Part shown: positions 5,806 to 61,946 of the stretch, piece after piece
How the letters are laid out: each line of letters starts with the position of its first letter
Position numbering within the stretch: the first letter of the stretch is position 1
Origin: a phage
NCBI GenBank assembly: GCA_032430995.1
Contig: GCA_032430995.1_3952.1
Strand: one strand, 5' to 3'
Length of the DNA stretch: 64,000 nucleotides
Notes under the pieces: generated by a model
Told to the model about the DNA's origin: nothing
What the model saw: only the letters and a program-made list of their open reading frames with translations
Database searches by the model: none
Program-made: the position numbers and the translations under genes

Positions 5806-5884
5806 GCTCCATTACTCCAATTGGCAGAGAGGCCAGACTTAAAATCTGTGTTATGTATCGGTTCGAATCCGATATGGAGTACCA
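5806..5884 (+). tRNA. tRNA with Leu-type anticodon UAA, class I length
   Basis: acceptor GCTCCAT/ATGGAGT, anticodon loop CTTAAAA, T-arm ATCGG-TTCGAAT-CCGAT, CCA. Confidence 0.5.
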
Positions 5885-5889
5885 AATTT

Positions 5890-5965
5890 AGCGGTATAGC
5901 ATAACTGGCAATGCAGCAGTCTCTGAAGCTGTCCTATTAAGGTTCAAATCCTTATGCCGCTGCCA
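5890..5965 (+). tRNA. tRNA-Gln (anticodon CUG)
   Basis: D-stem GCAT/ATGC, anticodon stem GCAGT/GCTGT loop CTCTGAA, T-arm TAAGG-TTCAAAT-CCTTA, CCA. Confidence 0.55.
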
Positions 5966-5996
5966 CTTCTAAGGATTCTTACGAGAGTCCTTAAAT

Positions 5997-6072
5997 GTGG
6001 CCTTATCATAAATGGTAATGACCCATGCTGTGAACATGGTCTATACGGGTTCAAATCCCGTAGGTCACCCCA
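5997..6072 (+). tRNA. tRNA-His (anticodon GUG)
   Basis: anticodon stem CCATG/CATGG loop CTGTGAA, T-arm CGGG-TTCAAAT-CCCG, CCA. Confidence 0.65.
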
Positions 6073-18067: not shown

Positions 18068-18079
18068 TAAATCCTATAA

Positions 18080-18112
18080 GGGGGAGACTTTAAAAGGTCT
18101 TCCCCTTTTTTG
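18080..18112 (+). terminator. intrinsic terminator after tail tube gene
   Basis: GGGGGAGAC-TTTAAAA-GGTCTTCCCC hairpin followed by TTTTTTGTTTCTTTT. Confidence 0.7.
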
Positions 18113-18781: not shown

Positions 18782-24165
<5,384 letters not shown>

Positions 24166-27972: not shown

Positions 27973-27981
27973 TTTCTTTAC

Positions 27982-28003
27982 AGGGGCTTTATAGCCCCTT
28001 TTA
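27982..28003 (+). terminator. terminator-like hairpin between the two fiber genes
   Basis: GGGGC-TTTATA-GCCCC hairpin followed by TTTT. Confidence 0.4.
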
Positions 28004-28018
28004 AGAGGAAAACTTATA

Positions 28019-33836: not shown

Positions 33837-34166
33837 TTAATCTGCCAGCCTTAAATTAAAATTAACACCAAATTTTTCGCATACTTCCAACATATACTCA
33901 AGCGAGACATTTCCAGTGAGGTGGATTATGTTGGATACACGAGCCTGAGAGATACCACAAATTTTAGCAACTTGCTCTTGAGAAAGACCTCTGGATTTAA
34001 TCTCTCTCTTAAAACGATGTGCAACGAAATCTCTCATTTCGTCTACATCCATTGGACAAATATAACTCTCCATTTCAGCCTCTCTGTCAGCCTCCCAATC
34101 ATCTTGTGGAGCATAAGGGTCAAAAACCTCATTCATCTTTCTTCTTCCGTTTGCGTGAAGTGTCAA
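33837..34166 (-). CDS. helix-turn-helix DNA-binding protein (XRE-like, putative)
   Basis: 109 aa; C-terminal segment LSQEQVAKICGISQARVSNI resembles HTH. Confidence 0.5.
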   Translation of the reverse strand: MTLHANGRRKMNEVFDPYAPQDDWEADREAEMESYICPMDVDEMRDFVAHRFKREIKSRGLSQEQVAKICGISQARVSNIIHLTGNVSLEYMLEVCEKFGVNFNLRLAD

Positions 34167-34817: not shown

Positions 34818-35092
34818 TGGCAGATTTTTTATAAGGCTACTGCCATCCTTCCATACCTCACCACACAAGACCAGACCATGCCGTACTCCACATCACCGTA
34901 CATCACTTAAAAACCCTTTTCAAAGACTCTTAAGTGATGTAATCGAATTTTTATGTAGCTCCGATTAACTACCCATACCATACAAAGCCATACCCAACCA
35001 AACATTACCGCACCATACAGAACCGTACCTAACCTGACATAGCCGCACCTTACCTTGTTAAAAGACCCTCTTAAAAGACCTTTTAAAAAGGA
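34818..35092. repeat. G-poor composite repeat region, copy 1 (shares modules with 36226-36495)
   Basis: shared blocks: GGCAGATTTTT..GGCTACTGCCATCC..CCATACC; hairpin CATCACTTAAAAACCC...TTAAGTGATG; TGTAGCT..ACTACCCATACC; TTAAAAGACCCTCTTAAAAGACCTTTTAAAAAGG. Confidence 0.75.
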
Positions 35093-35118
35093 GCCTCCGA
35101 AGAGGCTGCCTAGTCAAC

Positions 35119-36225: not shown

Positions 36226-36495
36226 GGTAGATTTTTAACGTGGCTACTACCATCCACCCATACCGCGACACACCGAACCAGACCTTACACCACCTTACAC
36301 CACCCCACCTCATTAAAAGACCCTCTTAAAAGGCCTTTTAAAAAGGTAAGTCTCATTTTAATGTAGCTGAGACTAACTACCCATACCTCACATCACCGCA
36401 CCATACTACACCTGACACCACCTTACACCACCGCACCATACCTGACCGAGCTACACATCACTTAAAAACCCTCTTAGAAAGACTCTTAAGTGATG
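36226..36495. repeat. G-poor composite repeat region, copy 2
   Basis: same modules as copy 1 but in permuted order; plus strand nearly devoid of G over about 250 bp. Confidence 0.75.
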
Positions 36496-36710
36496 CTGGT
36501 GAGTACCTGTTGGTTTATGCTGCTCAGTATACTCACCAAATTTTCTATGTCAACAGCTTTTTATATAAAAGTCCTGATAGCTATATGTGTCACGAAACAA
36601 AAGATTGTAAACAAGACACCCATTGCAAAAGATGTGTCCAAAAGCTTACTTGCAACGTATGACAATACAAAGACAACCAGTATAAACAGAATGACTGTAC
36701 TGAACATAGT

Positions 36711-39663: not shown

Positions 39664-42363
39664 TTAGTGTACTTCAAGCCAGCTTTTACCAACCTTACCA
39701 GTACCTGTTACAAGTGTTTCTTTCTTTAGACCTAAGTTCTTAGAAGCTTGTCCATAATACCAGTCGGTAACTGCTTTCACTTCTGCCGTCATACTTTCTG
39801 GACATTCCCAACTTGTTTCATCGTGATATGCACAGAGTAAACGAGCACCAATAGCTGGTTGACGACCATTTAACTTCATCAAACCTTCGTCAATCATACG
39901 ACGACAAGCAAGGTTAATTGCCTCATTTTGAATCTGAGCCTCTGAACCCATCAAAAGATAGTTCAACAGTTTGTGTGGAGATTTACACCACAACCAAGCT
40001 CCAGCAACCTTTACAAATCCCCCTTTAGAGATTGCAGCGGTCTTACCAAACACCTCTTCAAGTGCCTTTTTAGTTGCTTTGTAGTCAGCTTCCAAGTCAT
40101 CCAGCAGCTTCTTAATCTTAGGTAAACGAATAAAGTAAGTCTGTTTAGTCAGTGCACCTTCCTGAGTAGTTGCAGCTTTAATCGTCTTAGCAAACTTCTC
40201 ATCACCTGCACCGAACAGCAGTGCATAGATACCATTCTTAGCTTTCTTACGACCCTTGCTAATCTCATGGAGAAGGTTCTCATCCTGAGTAGCTCGACAA
40301 GTCAAGATATCCTGCTCATCATTCAAGCTAAAGTAAATGCTGTTCAGTGTGTGTGCATCAGTCCCTGAATAGACAACGTACAGGTCATTCTCAGAGTCAT
40401 AGCGGAGGTACTTATCAATCTCTGGGTTGAGGTACTCATCAAAGTGTTTGCAGTAATAGCGTCCATCTTCTTGACGAATAAACTCAATCTCTTCTTTACC
40501 TTGCGTTACCGCTTTGGTGAAGTCTTTGTCACCCATAAAGTTACAAAGAAGAACTAGCTGGGCTGAGTTCATATCTACAGAGACGACGTTAGTACCTTCT
40601 TCACAAATCCACACTGCCCTCATTGGTTCCCCATAGACAGCAGCACCAGACGGTACGTTTACAATACCATATTGTGTCATACGTCCAGTTGAAGTACCAA
40701 ATACCATTGCACCAGCACTAAGGCGACCATCTGGACGAATCTGGTTTAGCCAACCTTTTTCATCATCCTTTGAGTTCTCAATGGTTCTGCGTCGGTGCAT
40801 CAAAGTATAGTATTTAGCAATCTTCTGTCCAAGCTCACCTTCAATCGTATCATAAGAAGATTCAGTAAGTTTTGGTGAAGTACGGATTAAGCAAGGTTCA
40901 AGCAAATCCGTGTACTTCTTCACAGACCAGTTATGTTCGATGTACTGGACACCTTCGTGTTCAACATAACTCAACCCACACCGTTCAACCATCTCCTGCC
41001 ACTTAGGATGCTTTGTAATCATCTTTTTGTTGTCTTTGAAACGACAAACTTTGACAGGGCGACCGTCTGAATCTTTCTTGTAGTTCCAGTCATCTGGAAT
41101 CCAACCAACTGATTTCAAGTAGTCTTTAACAACTGCTACCTGAGTCATACGAGAAACTTCAAACTCAATTGGTGTATATGGTGCATCAATCAATCCTGTG
41201 TAGCGACTTGACTCAAGCTCAAAGTGGTTAACAACATGACTGTTATAGTACTTCACAGTTTTAACTGTTTTTACTGGCTTCCAGTCTTTGCATTTCTTAC
41301 CAATCTTTGCATTCAACTCATTGCAAATTGCACGAGCATCCTTCATTGCTACAAAACCTTCCTTGTACTCTTCACCAGTTACAGAGTTGGTTGGTGTATA
41401 GCAATTTCTCTTTTCAATGTTAAAAATCTTTGTAGTTGGCTTACCAAATGGCTTGATTTCATATGTCTGCATCTCACCGTTACGTACCTGCTGACGATAC
41501 TTTGTCTTAGGGTACTTGGTAATTCTCTTCAGTCCATCTGCGTGACCAAATGCTTCAACATACTCATTCCAAGCTTTTGCAAACTCTTCTCCAGTGACTT
41601 TACCTTTGGTCTTAATAGTTGGAGGAAGATGTGGTTCAACTTCCGAAGCAAGCTCATTAGTCAACTTGTCAAGTTCCTTTACATGGAACTCCATAAGCTC
41701 TTTATCAGCTTTCCAACCATTGATAGCTTGTTGACTCATCCAGAAAGATGTTTCTTTAGCTCGCATGTAGGTTTCATAAGTGTCTATGCCACACTTCTTA
41801 AGCTTGAGATATTCATTATCAAGTGCCCGTTTAGTTTTGGCGTTAATACGGATATCTTCTACAACACGAGTGAAGATTTCTGCATTCCACACACCCCAAT
41901 GTTCAATCTCTGGTTTACGAACACCAACACGAGCACCCCATGCAGCCAAACCATGAGCACCTTTATAACCCTTTGGAGTTGGTCTATCCATCCACTGAAC
42001 ACGAGACTGGATAAGAGAATCCTGAAAGAAATTACTCCACGGCTTACATTTTGGATTATCAAAGTTCCATAAATCCGGTGCAATGTGATTGAAGACCCAC
42101 CAGTCATAACCGAGGCCGTTATGGATACAAAGTCGTTTTGCCTTTAACGCAAACTCAACACCTTCACGTAAACCACCCTTAATGTACTTAGTGTACTTGT
42201 GACCGAGGATAGGCTCATCTGTAAAGACCCATACAGGTGGCTCTTCATCGTCAGATTTATAATCTGCGAAAGCCATTACGTGAACTTTAGTGAACTCAAG
42301 GAGTAAACCATCAGTTTCTGTATCACCAACTAAATGTAAGTTTTTAAAATCTACGTTTTCCAT
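39664..42363 (-). CDS. DNA polymerase, family A, with 3'-5' exonuclease domain
   Basis: Exo I motif DTETDGL; pol motif B-like K..NGIYALLFGAG and motif C-like YHDE; start set to ATG with GAGGGAG RBS (track start 42393). Confidence 0.8.
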   Translation of the reverse strand: MENVDFKNLHLVGDTETDGLLLEFTKVHVMAFADYKSDDEEPPVWVFTDEPILGHKYTKYIKGGLREGVEFALKAKRLCIHNGLGYDWWVFNHIAPDLWNFDNPKCKPWSNFFQDSLIQSRVQWMDRPTPKGYKGAHGLAAWGARVGVRKPEIEHWGVWNAEIFTRVVEDIRINAKTKRALDNEYLKLKKCGIDTYETYMRAKETSFWMSQQAINGWKADKELMEFHVKELDKLTNELASEVEPHLPPTIKTKGKVTGEEFAKAWNEYVEAFGHADGLKRITKYPKTKYRQQVRNGEMQTYEIKPFGKPTTKIFNIEKRNCYTPTNSVTGEEYKEGFVAMKDARAICNELNAKIGKKCKDWKPVKTVKTVKYYNSHVVNHFELESSRYTGLIDAPYTPIEFEVSRMTQVAVVKDYLKSVGWIPDDWNYKKDSDGRPVKVCRFKDNKKMITKHPKWQEMVERCGLSYVEHEGVQYIEHNWSVKKYTDLLEPCLIRTSPKLTESSYDTIEGELGQKIAKYYTLMHRRRTIENSKDDEKGWLNQIRPDGRLSAGAMVFGTSTGRMTQYGIVNVPSGAAVYGEPMRAVWICEEGTNVVSVDMNSAQLVLLCNFMGDKDFTKAVTQGKEEIEFIRQEDGRYYCKHFDEYLNPEIDKYLRYDSENDLYVVYSGTDAHTLNSIYFSLNDEQDILTCRATQDENLLHEISKGRKKAKNGIYALLFGAGDEKFAKTIKAATTQEGALTKQTYFIRLPKIKKLLDDLEADYKATKKALEEVFGKTAAISKGGFVKVAGAWLWCKSPHKLLNYLLMGSEAQIQNEAINLACRRMIDEGLMKLNGRQPAIGARLLCAYHDETSWECPESMTAEVKAVTDWYYGQASKNLGLKKETLVTGTGKVGKSWLEVH

Positions 42364-42423
42364 TTTTACTCCCTCTAAAATCATTAACCTCATACATTAC
42401 TGCAAAAAATTATAAAAAGCAAG

Positions 42424-42452
42424 TTGACAATGTACTTGACAAGGTGTTAATC
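42424..42452 (+). promoter_or_regulatory. sigma70-like promoter (TTGACA-N17-TTAATC) in divergent control region
   Basis: consensus -35; second TTGACA 12 bp downstream; AT-rich leader up to 42620. Confidence 0.4.
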
Positions 42453-42619
42453 TTTGCGAAGTGGGTTTTACTTAAAAGGTTACTTAACAGTTTAACTATA
42501 CAGATACTTTAAAACTCTTAAAAGATTATTTAATAGCTTTTAAAAAGCTTTAAAGTATAACGTATAGAATACGTTAAGATAAAAGATTAAAACTTAATAG
42601 TTACTTAAAAGAGGCTTAC

Positions 42620-43042
42620 ATGCAGAAAATGTTTGTTCACCCAGACATAGCTGACTTTGTTAGAGCTTTGCAGAAGTTGGAAGAACTTGACATTGCTGCT
42701 CAACGGGAATATGCTCACCATCACAGGAGAATGGTTGATATACAACATGAAATAGAGTTATCAGAAGATTATGAAGATGACTTAAAATGCTCTGTGTTCG
42801 AGCATATGAAAGACGTTGCTATAGCTAGACGTAAAGCTAAAGACACAGTTGCTTTACTAGATTCTCTTAAAAAGAGGTTGCAAAGTGGTACAGACCTGTG
42901 TAATCTAGCATCACTGATTAACGATGTTGAAACTTCTTGGGATAGGCACTATTATCCACGTTCTGAAAAGACACTTGACTTTTCTTCATCTGAAAACTTA
43001 AAATGTTCTAGAAAGAAACTTAACCAACTGAGAGAGAAATAA
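42620..43042 (+). CDS. hypothetical protein
   Basis: 140 aa first ORF of plus-strand replication block. Confidence 0.5.
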   Translation: MQKMFVHPDIADFVRALQKLEELDIAAQREYAHHHRRMVDIQHEIELSEDYEDDLKCSVFEHMKDVAIARRKAKDTVALLDSLKKRLQSGTDLCNLASLINDVETSWDRHYYPRSEKTLDFSSSENLKCSRKKLNQLREK

Positions 43043-43043
43043 T

Positions 43044-43856
43044 ATGAATACTACTGTAGACCAGATGCTTGAAGAAAAAGGTATTGACGAAGCTTTCTTA
43101 ATCAATGCTGTAGAAAGCATGGCTATGATTCTTCGTGGAAACAACTACACAGAACAGTTTATGCCTGCAAGCTATAACCTGCCTAAAGACAAGTCTGATA
43201 ACAGTGCTTTTGCAGAACAGGTTAATATGATGCTGTGTGACAAAACACTTGCTTTAGCATCTATTGTTGTAGGTGTTGATGCTCTTGCAGAGTTCATTTT
43301 TTATGAGATGCAGAAAAATGACTATATTGCCATGACCTCTGAAGAAAAAGACTCGCTACTGCTCTTAGATAATAATGAGCTAGTTGACCTGTTAATTTCG
43401 TCAACGAGTGCTGTTATGGCTGCTCTTGAGAAGCGCATGGAAGAGAAGCTGTCACGATATGAAAAACTTGATTGGGGTGTAGAAGAGTTAAACCCACGAA
43501 TCAAAGAGATTATCCAGCAAACTAAAGATTCTTTAGAAGAAGCTGTGAAAGATGATTCTGTAGCTGATGTAGAACCACTACAGGTGAAGGTTGCTCTGAT
43601 GATTCCAGCTATTTCTACAATGATGAATATCGTTGCACTAATCCAACTTTCTCAGATGTTGGGAGTAACCATTGAGTTCGTTGAGGAAATGACTGGCGGT
43701 GTGAGTATGCAAGCAATCAATGATGTTTTGGTGAACATTGGTGCTTCAATCATTGAAGAGAAGCTTCGCATTAACTTTGGTGATGATTTTGTGAAGCAAA
43801 TCTCAGCTATGGCTGAAAAAGAACACTCACAGATTAATACTGAGCAACTGCACTAA
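43044..43856 (+). CDS. hypothetical protein
   Basis: 270 aa acidic protein coupled to upstream ORF. Confidence 0.5.
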   Translation: MNTTVDQMLEEKGIDEAFLINAVESMAMILRGNNYTEQFMPASYNLPKDKSDNSAFAEQVNMMLCDKTLALASIVVGVDALAEFIFYEMQKNDYIAMTSEEKDSLLLLDNNELVDLLISSTSAVMAALEKRMEEKLSRYEKLDWGVEELNPRIKEIIQQTKDSLEEAVKDDSVADVEPLQVKVALMIPAISTMMNIVALIQLSQMLGVTIEFVEEMTGGVSMQAINDVLVNIGASIIEEKLRINFGDDFVKQISAMAEKEHSQINTEQLH

Positions 43857-59864: not shown

Positions 59865-60185
59865 ATGAGCAAAGTTTATAACACTCGTAAATTACAGATT
59901 TTCTTACTGTGCCAGTTTATGGCTAGAGAGCATAACTCCTACTATTGTGGTACAGGATTCATTAGTGATAATGATGGCTCATATCTCCCATTCAAAGAGG
60001 CTGTAAAACTCTTCAATGAAGAGAAAAGCTCTGAGAAAGATATTGAAAAGGTTAAATTAACATATAGTAAGAAAGATAAGAAGATTATCTGCCTAGATAA
60101 CTTTGTGAAAGTTACCAAAGAAACTAAAGAGTTAATGGAAGAAAGTGAAATTCCATTCACAAGAATCTTGAAAGTAGCTCAGTAA
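59865..60185 (+). CDS. hypothetical protein
   Basis: 106 aa ORF. Confidence 0.4.
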   Translation: MSKVYNTRKLQIFLLCQFMAREHNSYYCGTGFISDNDGSYLPFKEAVKLFNEEKSSEKDIEKVKLTYSKKDKKIICLDNFVKVTKETKELMEESEIPFTRILKVAQ

Positions 60186-60196
60186 GCAGATACTAT

Positions 60197-60222
60197 AAGG
60201 GAACTGTAAAGGTTCCCTTTTT
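60197..60222 (+). terminator. intrinsic terminator
   Basis: GGGAAC-TGTAAAG-GTTCCC hairpin followed by TTTTTATTTT. Confidence 0.65.
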
Positions 60223-61034: not shown

Positions 61035-61916
61035 ATGAAAACATCTATCCGTGTTACAGTTCATTCACCAACTAAAGGAACTCATGAAGAAGAGTTTAAC
61101 ATCATCCAATTTCCTTCTGGTGAGATTGGTGGACACTTTTCGCCAGAGTTTGTTGATTTCACTGCTTATGCAGCATCATCCATCAACAATGTGATTATGA
61201 TTGTAAAAGGTTATGATAAGGATACATTGTTTGCTGTGGCACTTGCTAAAGAAGCAATTGATGATTTAATTCCTCATGATTATGCTTTAAAGACTGTCAT
61301 CTTTTACTACTTACCAAATGCACGTTATGACCGTCACATGTTTAAAGGCGACGCAGCAGCTTTAAAGGTTTTTGCTAAACAGGTAAATGCAATGGGATTT
61401 GGTGCAGTCTGTGCAGTTGACCCTCACAGCTATGTACCAGATAACCTGTTTAACTGCTTCCAGAGTATTCCTCAAAAGGAAATTGCAGTCCACTATGCAA
61501 ATGACCCACTGATTGATTACTTAGTAGCCCCAGATGCAGGTGCTGCTAAGAAGATTGCAGAGACTGCTAAAGAGGTGGATAAACCATATATCACAATGTC
61601 TAAAGTACGCAACCTTAAGACTGGTGAAATTACTGGTATGCGAATCCTTGATGATGTTGATTTGACAGATAAAACCGTCATGATTCTGGATGATATCTGT
61701 GATGGTGGTCGAACCTTCATAGAAGCAGCTAAACATCTTCGTGAAGCAGGTGCAAAACGTGTGGAACTCTATGTAACACACGGTATCTTCTCTAAAGATG
61801 TTGAAAACCTTCTTGGCAATGGCATTGACCACATCTACACTACAAACTCTTTAGGGGAAGCTAAAGACCGTGGCTTAACACATTATGGTCAAGTTACTGT
61901 AGCAAACCTTGATTGA
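61035..61916 (+). CDS. ribose-phosphate pyrophosphokinase family protein (PRPP synthetase-like; candidate ADP-ribose pyrophosphokinase of an NAD+ salvage pair)
   Basis: PRPP-binding loop VMILDDICDGGRTF; adjacent to NAMPT-like gene; ATG 61035 with GAGAGAGAA RBS. Confidence 0.6.
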   Translation: MKTSIRVTVHSPTKGTHEEEFNIIQFPSGEIGGHFSPEFVDFTAYAASSINNVIMIVKGYDKDTLFAVALAKEAIDDLIPHDYALKTVIFYYLPNARYDRHMFKGDAAALKVFAKQVNAMGFGAVCAVDPHSYVPDNLFNCFQSIPQKEIAVHYANDPLIDYLVAPDAGAAKKIAETAKEVDKPYITMSKVRNLKTGEITGMRILDDVDLTDKTVMILDDICDGGRTFIEAAKHLREAGAKRVELYVTHGIFSKDVENLLGNGIDHIYTTNSLGEAKDRGLTHYGQVTVANLD

Positions 61917-61924
61917 AACTTTAT

Positions 61925-61946
61925 AGGGGCTTAAAAGCCCCATTTT
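61925..61946 (+). terminator. terminator-like hairpin between the PRPP-synthetase-like and NAMPT-like genes
   Basis: GGGGC-TTAAAA-GCCCC followed by ATTTT. Confidence 0.45.

Follow-up and report, generated by a model that had tools for sequence, protein, structure and literature searches.

A short intergenic gap in the replication region of Felix O1-like phages raises the question of whether it serves for divergent early transcription or also carries an origin of replication. It was studied here in a stretch of phage DNA of 64,000 nucleotides (NCBI GenBank assembly GCA_032430995.1, contig GCA_032430995.1_3952.1; hereafter the window), in which the gap separates a leftward family A DNA polymerase gene from a rightward gp104 homologue. 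The original prediction, made from the sequence alone, had read the gap as a divergent early promoter region and possibly a replication origin with iterons. The comparisons reported here favour the first part: the gap (42364–42619) probably serves a Felix O1-like phage as its promoter and control region for divergent early transcription, in which an array of short words would act as a regulatory platform. Divergent early control regions are a known kind of element, and one had already been postulated for this gap; for a twin-box promoter module at both divergent junctions, together with a conserved periodic array of CTTWAMAG words, no earlier description was found. Long established for the typing of Salmonella, where they are classic, Felix O1-like phages are also widely used candidates for biocontrol and therapy, and the cis-elements described below are ones to spare when Felixounavirus genomes are engineered.

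Limits and conservation of the divergent gap

The window represents a Felixounavirus and shows 97–99% identity to phages wV8 and Felix O1. A 1.2-kb segment enclosing the region matched 258 records of Ounavirinae phages, 215 of them at 95–99% identity, and nearly all of these 215 were Felix O1-like myoviruses (Felixounavirus, including wV8, Felix O1 and Bas63). The gap is the one found between genes 96 and 97 of Felix O1 and between genes 103 and 104 of wV8. The original prediction was right that a divergent gap lies between the polymerase and gp104 genes, but its length of 226 bp was not upheld: that figure arose because a mechanical open reading frame (ORF) start at 42393 was used, and with the conserved polymerase ATG at 42363 the real gap spans 42364–42619 (256 bp). 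A polymerase start matching 42363 is annotated in Suspvirus and Mooglevirus records, and a 1-nt indel upstream of this position in Suspvirus puts the longer polymerase ORF out of frame. Five nucleotides ahead of the ATG lies a Shine-Dalgarno sequence, GAGGGAG (42369–42375, minus strand), which is invariant in seven genomes. The starts given in GenBank disagree (906 amino acids from 42384 in wV8 and Ro111lw; 899 amino acids from 42363 in Suspvirus and Mooglevirus; 910 amino acids in UAB_Phi87), and it is the ribosome-binding site, together with the conservation of frame across genera, that favours 42363 over both 42384 and 42393.

The gap was aligned for the window, wV8, two Suspvirus and three Mooglevirus genomes, and 16 further distinct variants were taken from IMG/VR. 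Invariant blocks comprised AAAAAGCAAGTTGACAA, ACTTGACAAGGTG, TCTTT.CG.AGTGGG, TTAACTATACAG, CTTAAAAGATT.TTTAATAG and AAGCTTTAAAGT. Identity of the gap to Suspvirus and Mooglevirus was 82–87%, compared with 43–57% at four-fold degenerate sites in the polymerase, gp104, gp105 and deoxynucleoside monophosphate (dNMP) kinase genes that flank it and 71–81% at the first codon positions of gp104. It was also the best conserved overall of seven neighbouring intergenic gaps (0.82–0.86 versus mostly 0.53–0.74), one small neighbouring gap attaining 0.85 in Mooglevirus only. Since the identity of the gap exceeds that of four-fold sites and of neighbouring gaps, the whole 256 bp is, on this comparison, under purifying selection that goes beyond the needs of two promoters.

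Candidate back-to-back promoters and the twin-box module

Two TTGACA boxes are present in the gap, as had been noted in the original prediction, at 42424–42429 and 42436–42441; contrary to its description they do not overlap but stand in tandem, 12 bp from start to start. By comparison between genomes they are assigned to a putative rightward promoter, P_R (42424–42453, plus strand), with an 18-nt spacer that houses the second TTGACA, a TG dinucleotide at 42445–42446 and a -10 element TAATCT at 42448–42453 (context TGtTAATCT), from which a start at about 42459–42461 is predicted. Directly upstream of the -35 box lies an A-tract, AAAAAATTATAAAAAGCAAG (42404–42423, plus strand), that resembles the general consensus of an UP element. 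Within the A-tract AAAAAGCAAG is invariant across three genera, and A-tracts occupy the same position in a second, class B copy of the promoter and in unrelated contigs carrying the twin boxes, both described below.

The A-tract overlaps the -35 box of a candidate sigma-70 promoter on the opposite strand, P_L (42394–42422, minus strand), again proposed by comparison, with -35 TTGCTT (42422 to 42417), a 17-nt spacer, -10 TAATGT (42399 to 42394) and a predicted start at about 42387. The complement of its -35 box, AAGCAA (42417–42422), is invariant. In Mooglevirus the P_L -10 reads TAGGGT at the same spacing, keeping TAnnnT, and the P_R -10 reads TG.TAGTCT, keeping TAnTCT. More distant relatives (phiEa104, vEam_W_25, Arno162 and the Logan contigs L074 and L076) have a single TTGACA-N17/18-TAnnnT at the position of P_R, with TACATT, TAGGCT, TACTGT or TAATGT as the -10. 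Counterparts of P_L were TTGCCA-N17-TAATTT in L074, TTGACC-N17-TATCTT in L076 and a -10 of TGaTACTAT in phiEa104, the leftward -10 in Kolesnikviruses being TGaTACTAT or TGaTATGAT; in these relatives the leftward -35 lies within a few bases of that of P_R, which constitutes the same back-to-back layout.

The expectation of divergent early promoters thus finds support in the comparison, namely in the -35 box, A-tract and TGnTAnnCT -10 element of P_R, invariant across three genera, in the back-to-back candidate P_L, and in the recurrence of the module at the other divergent junction. Divergent early promoters had been assumed in this gap of Felix O1 by Whichard et al. (2010; PMC3185647), and Felix O1 polymerase transcripts were detected by reverse transcription PCR within 5 min, that is, early (PMC3185647). 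Both that study and GenBank record MZ726791 deal with this very locus, bordered by the same two genes and 97–99% identical; the study says nothing of the twin-box module and its second copy, of the word array and dyads, or of the conservation. In MZ726791 two weak consensus promoters are annotated, one rightward (window 42424–42451) and one leftward (window 42496–42522). A leftward TTTAAG-N16-TATAGT near the latter was considered and rejected: its -10 lies within the word CTATACAG, which is changed to CTAAACAG in Arno162, and because this -10 is lost there, 42394–42422 is preferred as the leftward promoter.

Known back-to-back divergent sigma-70 promoters with UP elements, as in bacterial and phage early regions, likewise have neighbouring -35 boxes on the two strands, and they combine a consensus -35 with an A-tract at -40 to -60 and a TGn like that of an extended -10. 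The arrangement here differs from them in having a second TTGACA within the spacer, which creates a 12-nt direct repeat, TTGACAAnGTnn, and in that a conserved AT-rich word array of 150 nt lies downstream, not upstream, of the predicted start.

The 23-nt twin-box module, TTGACAAnnnACTTGACAAGGTG, occurs once in the window and is invariant across genera. wV8 has a second copy at 23802, which lies immediately left of window base 1 and falls in the other divergent gap of that genome, the one separating genes 45 and 46. A scan of IMG/VR gave 57 TTGACAAnnnACTTGACAAGGTG loci, with two main classes that comprise about 20 each, and in complete Felixounavirus genomes there is one locus per class, one at each divergent junction. 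The two copies are paralogous over about 85 nt, a length that includes the first word, ACTTAAAAGGTT, at an equal distance from the promoter. Through this paralogy the TTACTTAAAAG word is linked to a unit of promoter and leader, which speaks against a unique, locus-specific set of iterons. Precise coordinates can now be given for two paralogous modules of putative early promoter and leader. In the second copy (wV8 23780–23955, TTGACAAAGTACTTGACAAGGTGT) the module is followed by CTTAAAAG-type words and by a different dyad, AGATATC-TTTCTG-GATATCT.

The exact module was also seen in seven unrelated IMG/VR contigs (L016, L029, L032, L046, L056, L060 and L066). Six of these are related to Clostridium phages and have TTGACAAAGCACTTGACAAGGTG followed by TATGAT; the remaining one has the appearance of a T4-like cyanophage and includes a stretch that matches the Felixounavirus class B promoter exactly. 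These occurrences could reflect a mobile promoter cassette or an assembly chimera. In Kolesnikvirus (L011 86–562, L013 65–544 and L014 85–561) the control region is separated from the polymerase gene by an inserted gene for an HNH homing endonuclease, and the word array stays on the gp104 side together with the rightward promoters; these phages carry, in addition, a second, canonical promoter, TTGACT-N18-TGgTATGAT, directly upstream of gp104.

The word array and its proposed role

The DNA following P_R is the most AT-rich of the window. The region had been described as very AT-rich, which is borne out by an A+T content of 74.8% for 42394–42619 against 60.6% for the window; the whole gap has 74% and 42462–42612 has 78.8%. 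The region ranks first in the window for AT content at scales of 100, 150, 226 and 256 bp. Based on nearest-neighbour energies it is also the least stable duplex of the 64 kb at 100 and 150 bp (-105 compared with a window mean of -128.5 and a standard deviation of 5, a departure of about 4.7 standard deviations). Helical phasing of A-tracts, used as a proxy for curvature, was not unusual, the power at 10–11.5 bp being equalled in 10% of background segments.

Iteration of TTACTTAA, already noticed in the original prediction, was confirmed at 42468, 42480 and 42601, three of the five copies on both strands of the window. In 2000 dinucleotide-preserving shuffles of the region, none reached the observed counts of TTACTTAA (3 versus 0.16 expected), CTTAAAAG (3 versus 0.05) or CT[TAG][TA]A[AC]AG (6 versus 0.21). 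The unit that is conserved is CT(T/A/G)(T/A)A(A/C/T)AG and slightly longer forms of it, TTACTTAA being specific to Felixounavirus. The main array (42469–42556, plus strand) has its words in one orientation at steps of about 10–13 nt: (TA)CTTAAAAG at 42471, CTTAACAG at 42483, CTATACAG at 42496, CTTTAAAAC at 42507, CTTAAAAG at 42517, TTTAATAG at 42529, CTTTTAAAAAG at 42537 and CTTTAAAG at 42548. Two more words on the same strand, CTTAATAG at 42593 and CTTAAAAG at 42604, lead into the gp104 Shine-Dalgarno sequence AAGAGG (42609–42614), an arrangement that is shared by Arno162 and L074 (GTTTAAAGAGG).

Tandem Repeats Finder called no array in the region because the repeats are too degenerate, and for this reason counts with regular expressions and shuffle controls were used. 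Nine leaders were counted with one regular expression against local shuffles. The leaders of the window, of SUSP2, Moogle and Arno162, of two Kolesnikviruses and of L074 contained 7, 6, 8, 8, 4, 4 and 6 words, respectively, where 0.4–1.1 were expected (each P<0.001); the excess was weaker in the other two, L076 and the class B copy. Orientation was uniform, and the commonest end-to-end spacing of words was 11–14 nt. The array recurs in every Ounavirinae lineage examined and its layout thus persists in lineages too diverged to align, and its 150 bp of AT-rich DNA are more constrained than neighbouring protein-coding positions.

Because the words are near-palindromic, the array also contains an imperfect palindrome of 55 nt (42504–42558, centre 42531; 27-nt arms, 78% complementary), found by a repeat search and conserved in three genera, and within it a perfect 15-bp dyad, AGCTTTT-A-AAAAGCT (42535–42549), which is unique in the window. 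It is followed by a 19-bp dyad or hairpin, TAACGTAT-AGA-ATACGTTA (42558–42576), which has perfect 8-bp arms, is likewise unique in the window and encloses a -10-like TAGAAT (42565–42570). Two compensatory pair changes, C:G to T:A and A:T to T:A, were found in this dyad across genera; these would be consistent with an RNA hairpin and with a dimeric operator alike.

The words are not confined to the gap. CTDWAHAG occurs 148 times in the window compared with 63 ± 8 expected, with 28% of the sites in the 10% that is non-coding, and 151 times in the first 45 kb of wV8 compared with 48 ± 7 expected. The densest 160-bp stretch for this motif is the control region, with seven sites, the next-best having four. 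Many copies occupy the loops of intrinsic terminators, for example GGGGCTTAAAAGCCCC. Terminator hairpins with words in their loops or inner stems were seen at about 18075–18110, 27976–28010, 60185–60215 and 61915–61945 (GGAGACTTTAAAAGGTCTTCC, GGGGCTTTATAGCCCC, GGGAACTGTAAAGGTTCCC and GGGGCTTAAAAGCCCC). Where genes 27 and 28 of wV8 converge, outside the window, a block of about 1.6 kb without coding sequence (wV8 13900–15500) contains dozens of 8-nt words (CTTAAAAG, CTTATAAG, CTATAAAG, CTGTAAAG, CTGTTAAG, CTTGTTAG and CTCTATAG), the same vocabulary as that of the control-region array; it resembles the CCTAAAG repeat array at the T7 left end. The genome of UAB_Phi87 is reported to have a terminal repeat of 608 bp (PMC4837284).

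In the reading that we favour, host RNA polymerase with sigma-70 would read both back-to-back promoters, with their adjacent -35 boxes. P_R would fire rightward from about 42460 into gp104 and gp105 and, further downstream, the dNMP kinase and primase-helicase genes; P_L would fire in the opposite direction, from about 42387, and transcribe the polymerase operon. Far from being a neutral spacer, the 150 bp after P_R form a selected cis-element, made up of 8–10 CTTWAMAG words in one orientation about 12–13 nt apart and two dyads, which would be transcribed as the leader of gp104. The array may form a promoter-proximal platform for a host or phage factor, whose binding would govern how strongly and when both twin-box promoters drive early transcription. 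A candidate regulator acting at the dyads is a Cro/CI-type helix-turn-helix (HTH_3) protein of 109 amino acids encoded in the leftward operon (33837–34166, minus strand; E = 6e-10). The sequence features themselves, their statistical excess, the strong purifying selection, the paralogous second copy and the array layout kept across the subfamily are observed, whereas start sites, promoter activity, binding factor and regulatory role are inferred.

Several points weigh against this reading. A simple sigma-70 consensus scan, in which a match of at least four out of six was demanded in each hexamer, called neither P_R nor P_L and gave only a weak minus-strand site in the gap. P_R was not called because its -10 matches the consensus at just three of six positions, and the -10 elements of both promoters are weak; since the scan called nothing else of relevance, the case for the promoters was built on comparative evidence. 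The authors of the Felix O1 study reported no obvious promoter sequence in the gap (PMC3185647). The searchable literature yields no transcription start site, RNA sequencing or origin mapping for Felixounavirus, and a CRISPRi-ART study of SUSP1 did not address the gap; the PhageMaP data for Bas63 contain no intergenic sites and no value for gene 48, its gp104 homologue. A regulator that binds the words is purely hypothetical, and neither the 19-bp nor the 15-bp dyad recurs in the window, as would be needed to define the regulon of an HTH protein. Genome-wide, asymmetric words show no bias for the transcribed strand (38 versus 32), so that the word class as a whole may in part reflect composition or serve as punctuation, and need not be a specific binding code. 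Finally, a promoter next to a meltable zone in a T7-like replication cluster fits a transcription-activated origin equally.

Alternative readings and genomic context

The regulatory, mRNA-leader and origin readings are not mutually exclusive. According to the last of these, a transcript from P_R running into the meltable array would allow the family A polymerase and the primase-helicase to start synthesis, as at the transcription-activated origins of T7 and T4; the second twin-box region would then be a second origin. We regard this as unlikely, although by no means negligible, and it is compatible with the promoter reading. The putative promoter P_R does lie directly upstream of an AT-rich unwindable segment, the least stable 100–150 bp (z of about 4.7) and the most AT-rich DNA of the 64 kb. 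This segment belongs to the part of the replication cluster that runs from the polymerase gene to that of a T7 gp4-like primase-helicase, and the replisome is of the matching type (Pfam DNA_pol_A, with DnaB-like and DnaG-like matches below curated cut-offs). Purifying selection over 256 bp, beyond promoter needs, agrees with such a role. Bacterial origins such as oriC contain duplex-unwinding elements of tandem AT-rich repeats, which the tandem 12–13-nt AT-rich units recall. The cumulative GC-skew check that accompanied the original prediction does place a local minimum here, at 42–43 kb, but turned out to be uninformative: in the complete genome of wV8 its turning points, at about 13.5, 24, 55.5 and 66 kb, coincide with the four switches of gene orientation, and a second minimum falls at the other divergent junction. 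As the skew turns at every strand switch, it cannot discriminate an origin and adds nothing to the case. The genome-wide distribution of the words, including terminator loops and the 1.6-kb non-coding block, also speaks against an origin-specific array.

One likeness is to T7, in which the segments compared function as origins according to the T7 literature. At the primary origin (phi1.1A and phi1.1B; T7 5848–6007) the promoters are followed by an AT-rich zone with CTTAAG, CTTTAAG and CTTAAAAG words, the same layout as here, and genes for a replisome of family A polymerase and gp4-type primase-helicase adjoin in both cases. The T7 promoters, however, serve the phage's own RNA polymerase whereas the candidates here belong to the sigma-70 class read by the host enzyme. 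Only for T7 has a function as origin been established, and the likeness, which lies in low-complexity DNA, may be convergent. Window positions 42488–42576 aligned with T7 398–492 (phiOL to A1) at a score of 32 compared with 16.6 ± 2.6 for shuffled sequence; the control for this was a mononucleotide shuffle, the DNA is of low complexity and AT-rich, and the T7 segment includes the A1 promoter, so that the likeness may be one of promoter-region style. The alignment spans the AT-rich segment downstream of phiOL and the A1 promoter core (GACTTAAAAGATTAATTTAAAA...TTAAAGTCTAACCTATAGGATAC). A further counterpart is the T7 left-end array (CCTAAAG, CATAAAG and CTTAAAG), in which C(C/T)TAAAG-type words of 7–8 nt recur every 12–13 nt, very much as here; it adjoins the terminal repeat, whereas the present array lies between a promoter and a gene start. 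To our knowledge the left-end array has no known function. The array described here thus has a short-word vocabulary in common with both the origin and left-end regions of T7.

The T4 origins oriF(uvsY) and oriG(34) consist of a promoter followed by a DNA unwinding element at which an R-loop forms, and here too a putative promoter lies directly upstream of the most meltable DNA. They use MotA-dependent middle promoters, in contrast to the sigma-70-type candidates in the gap. A scan limited to 15 neighbouring proteins gave no homologue of MotA or AsiA. AGCTTTA (42546–42552), N12 and TAGAAT (42565–42570) reproduce the geometry of a MotA-box promoter (MotA box TGCTTtA 11–13 bp upstream of TAnnnT) in form only. 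If the array were an origin, it would extend the T7/T4 principle of promoter plus unwinding element to a phage relying on host RNA polymerase. A bolder version, which we consider rather unlikely, is that the twin-box module and CTTWAMAG array are the Felix O1-like origin, in two copies, as a host-RNA-polymerase counterpart of the T7 and T4 origins, with the words as the code of a phage replication or packaging factor such as the primase-helicase. Were the array an origin, the occurrence of the words genome-wide and in the 1.6-kb block, and the similar CCTAAAG arrays of T7, could be understood as such a recognition code.

An improbable alternative is that selection acts on the RNA, the AU-rich gp104 leader of 160 nt with its CUUAAAAG words and hairpins controlling translation, mRNA stability or processing, or antitermination. 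The array words are all in transcript orientation in every lineage, the last of them overlaps the gp104 Shine-Dalgarno sequence, and words and a hairpin follow both twin-box promoters; the word class genome-wide, in contrast, has no sense-strand bias. The leader folds better than shuffled sequences (z = -2.5), which is attributable to the 55-nt imperfect palindrome, and the small hairpin has two compensatory pairs. Outside this 7-bp hairpin, however, the covariation term of the consensus fold is just -0.2 kcal/mol, and a dyad with co-varying half-sites would fit a dimeric DNA-binding protein equally well. A Felix O1-like genome presents many intrinsic terminators that transcription must pass, and how it does so was an open question in the Felix O1 study (PMC3185647). 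Against an antiterminating or otherwise RNA-based element, Rfam gave no match at E<=1 over 42000–43000, and neither gp104 nor gp105 shows an RNA-binding or single-strand-binding fold. The boxA-like CTCTTAAAA at 42514–42522 matches the boxA of lambda nutL, but is not kept between genera (ACTCTT, CCCTT, GACTT and GTCTT). A lambda-type nut site (boxA GCTCTT(T)A plus boxB) was rejected, given this variation in the CTCTT core and the Rfam result.

The iterons of the original prediction, which would make the gap a classical origin like those of lambda and plasmids, with direct repeats bound by an initiator encoded next door, fared poorly. Repeats in the same orientation do lie by AT-rich DNA in a replication gene cluster, but they are degenerate 8-nt cores rather than locus-specific repeats of 17–22 bp, and they recur at the second promoter and genome-wide, where the class is two- to three-fold over-represented. 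No signature of an initiator, of a helicase loader or of DNA binding was found in the neighbouring proteins, and no DnaA box (TTATCCACA) was seen on reading the sequence. We therefore consider this reading very unlikely. A neutral AT-rich spacer with repeats born of low complexity can be dismissed, since the readiness of AT-rich DNA to yield short repeated words and the negative Tandem Repeats Finder result are set against counts reached in none of 2000 local dinucleotide shuffles, 82–87% cross-genus identity where synonymous sites are near saturation, and an array layout retained in lineages past alignment.

The polymerase gene on the left of the gap (39664–42363, minus strand; 899 amino acids) is the first gene of the leftward operon. 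The rightward operon begins with the gp104 homologue (42620–43042, plus strand; 140 amino acids, phrog_4039), of unassigned function, which is followed in order by gp105, a terminator, the dNMP kinase gene, a small gene and the T7 gp4-like primase-helicase gene. The matches of the primase-helicase (663 amino acids) to DnaB-like and DnaG-like families are all well under curated cut-offs. The gap itself contains a single small ORF, with a GTG start and 22 codons' worth of amino acids, and a simple terminator scan called no intrinsic terminator in it.

No Pfam or NCBIfam family was matched by gp104 or gp105. The gp104 family is confined to Ounavirinae, and its AlphaFold model is an all-helical hairpin (predicted local distance difference test, pLDDT, 73); a role as initiator or regulator was rejected in view of this model, of top PDB matches that were generic coiled coils at E>0.04, and of the restricted family. 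The gp105 gene (43044–43856, plus strand; phrog_4251) lies inside the replication block and is annotated as 'minor tail protein', a label that is doubtful. Its product is unusually variable (84–94% protein identity within Felixounavirus where DNA identity is 97–99%), its model is all-helical at low confidence (pLDDT 51), and the Bas63 homologue is non-essential according to the PhageMaP supplementary data. A single-strand-binding protein with a gp32-like AU-rich operator was considered for gp105 and rejected on the grounds of the all-helical model, the non-essential homologue and a lack of any sequence match in PDB.

Other repeats of the window lie at some distance from the gap. A further TTGACA, at 146–185 between homologues of wV8 genes 46 and 47, is part of an inverted repeat with 9-bp arms, TGACAGACT...AGTCTGTCA, which could be a promoter, an operator or a hairpin. 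In the minus-strand block, the intergenic stretches 34830–35095 and 36240–36500 contain imperfect short repeats rich in C and A (CCATACCTCACCACACAAGACCAGACC...), equivalent to 'DR_4' of wV8, and in both stretches the repeats are followed by a common module, CTCTTAAAAG(A/G)CCTTTTAAAAAGG, that is similar to window 42516–42547.

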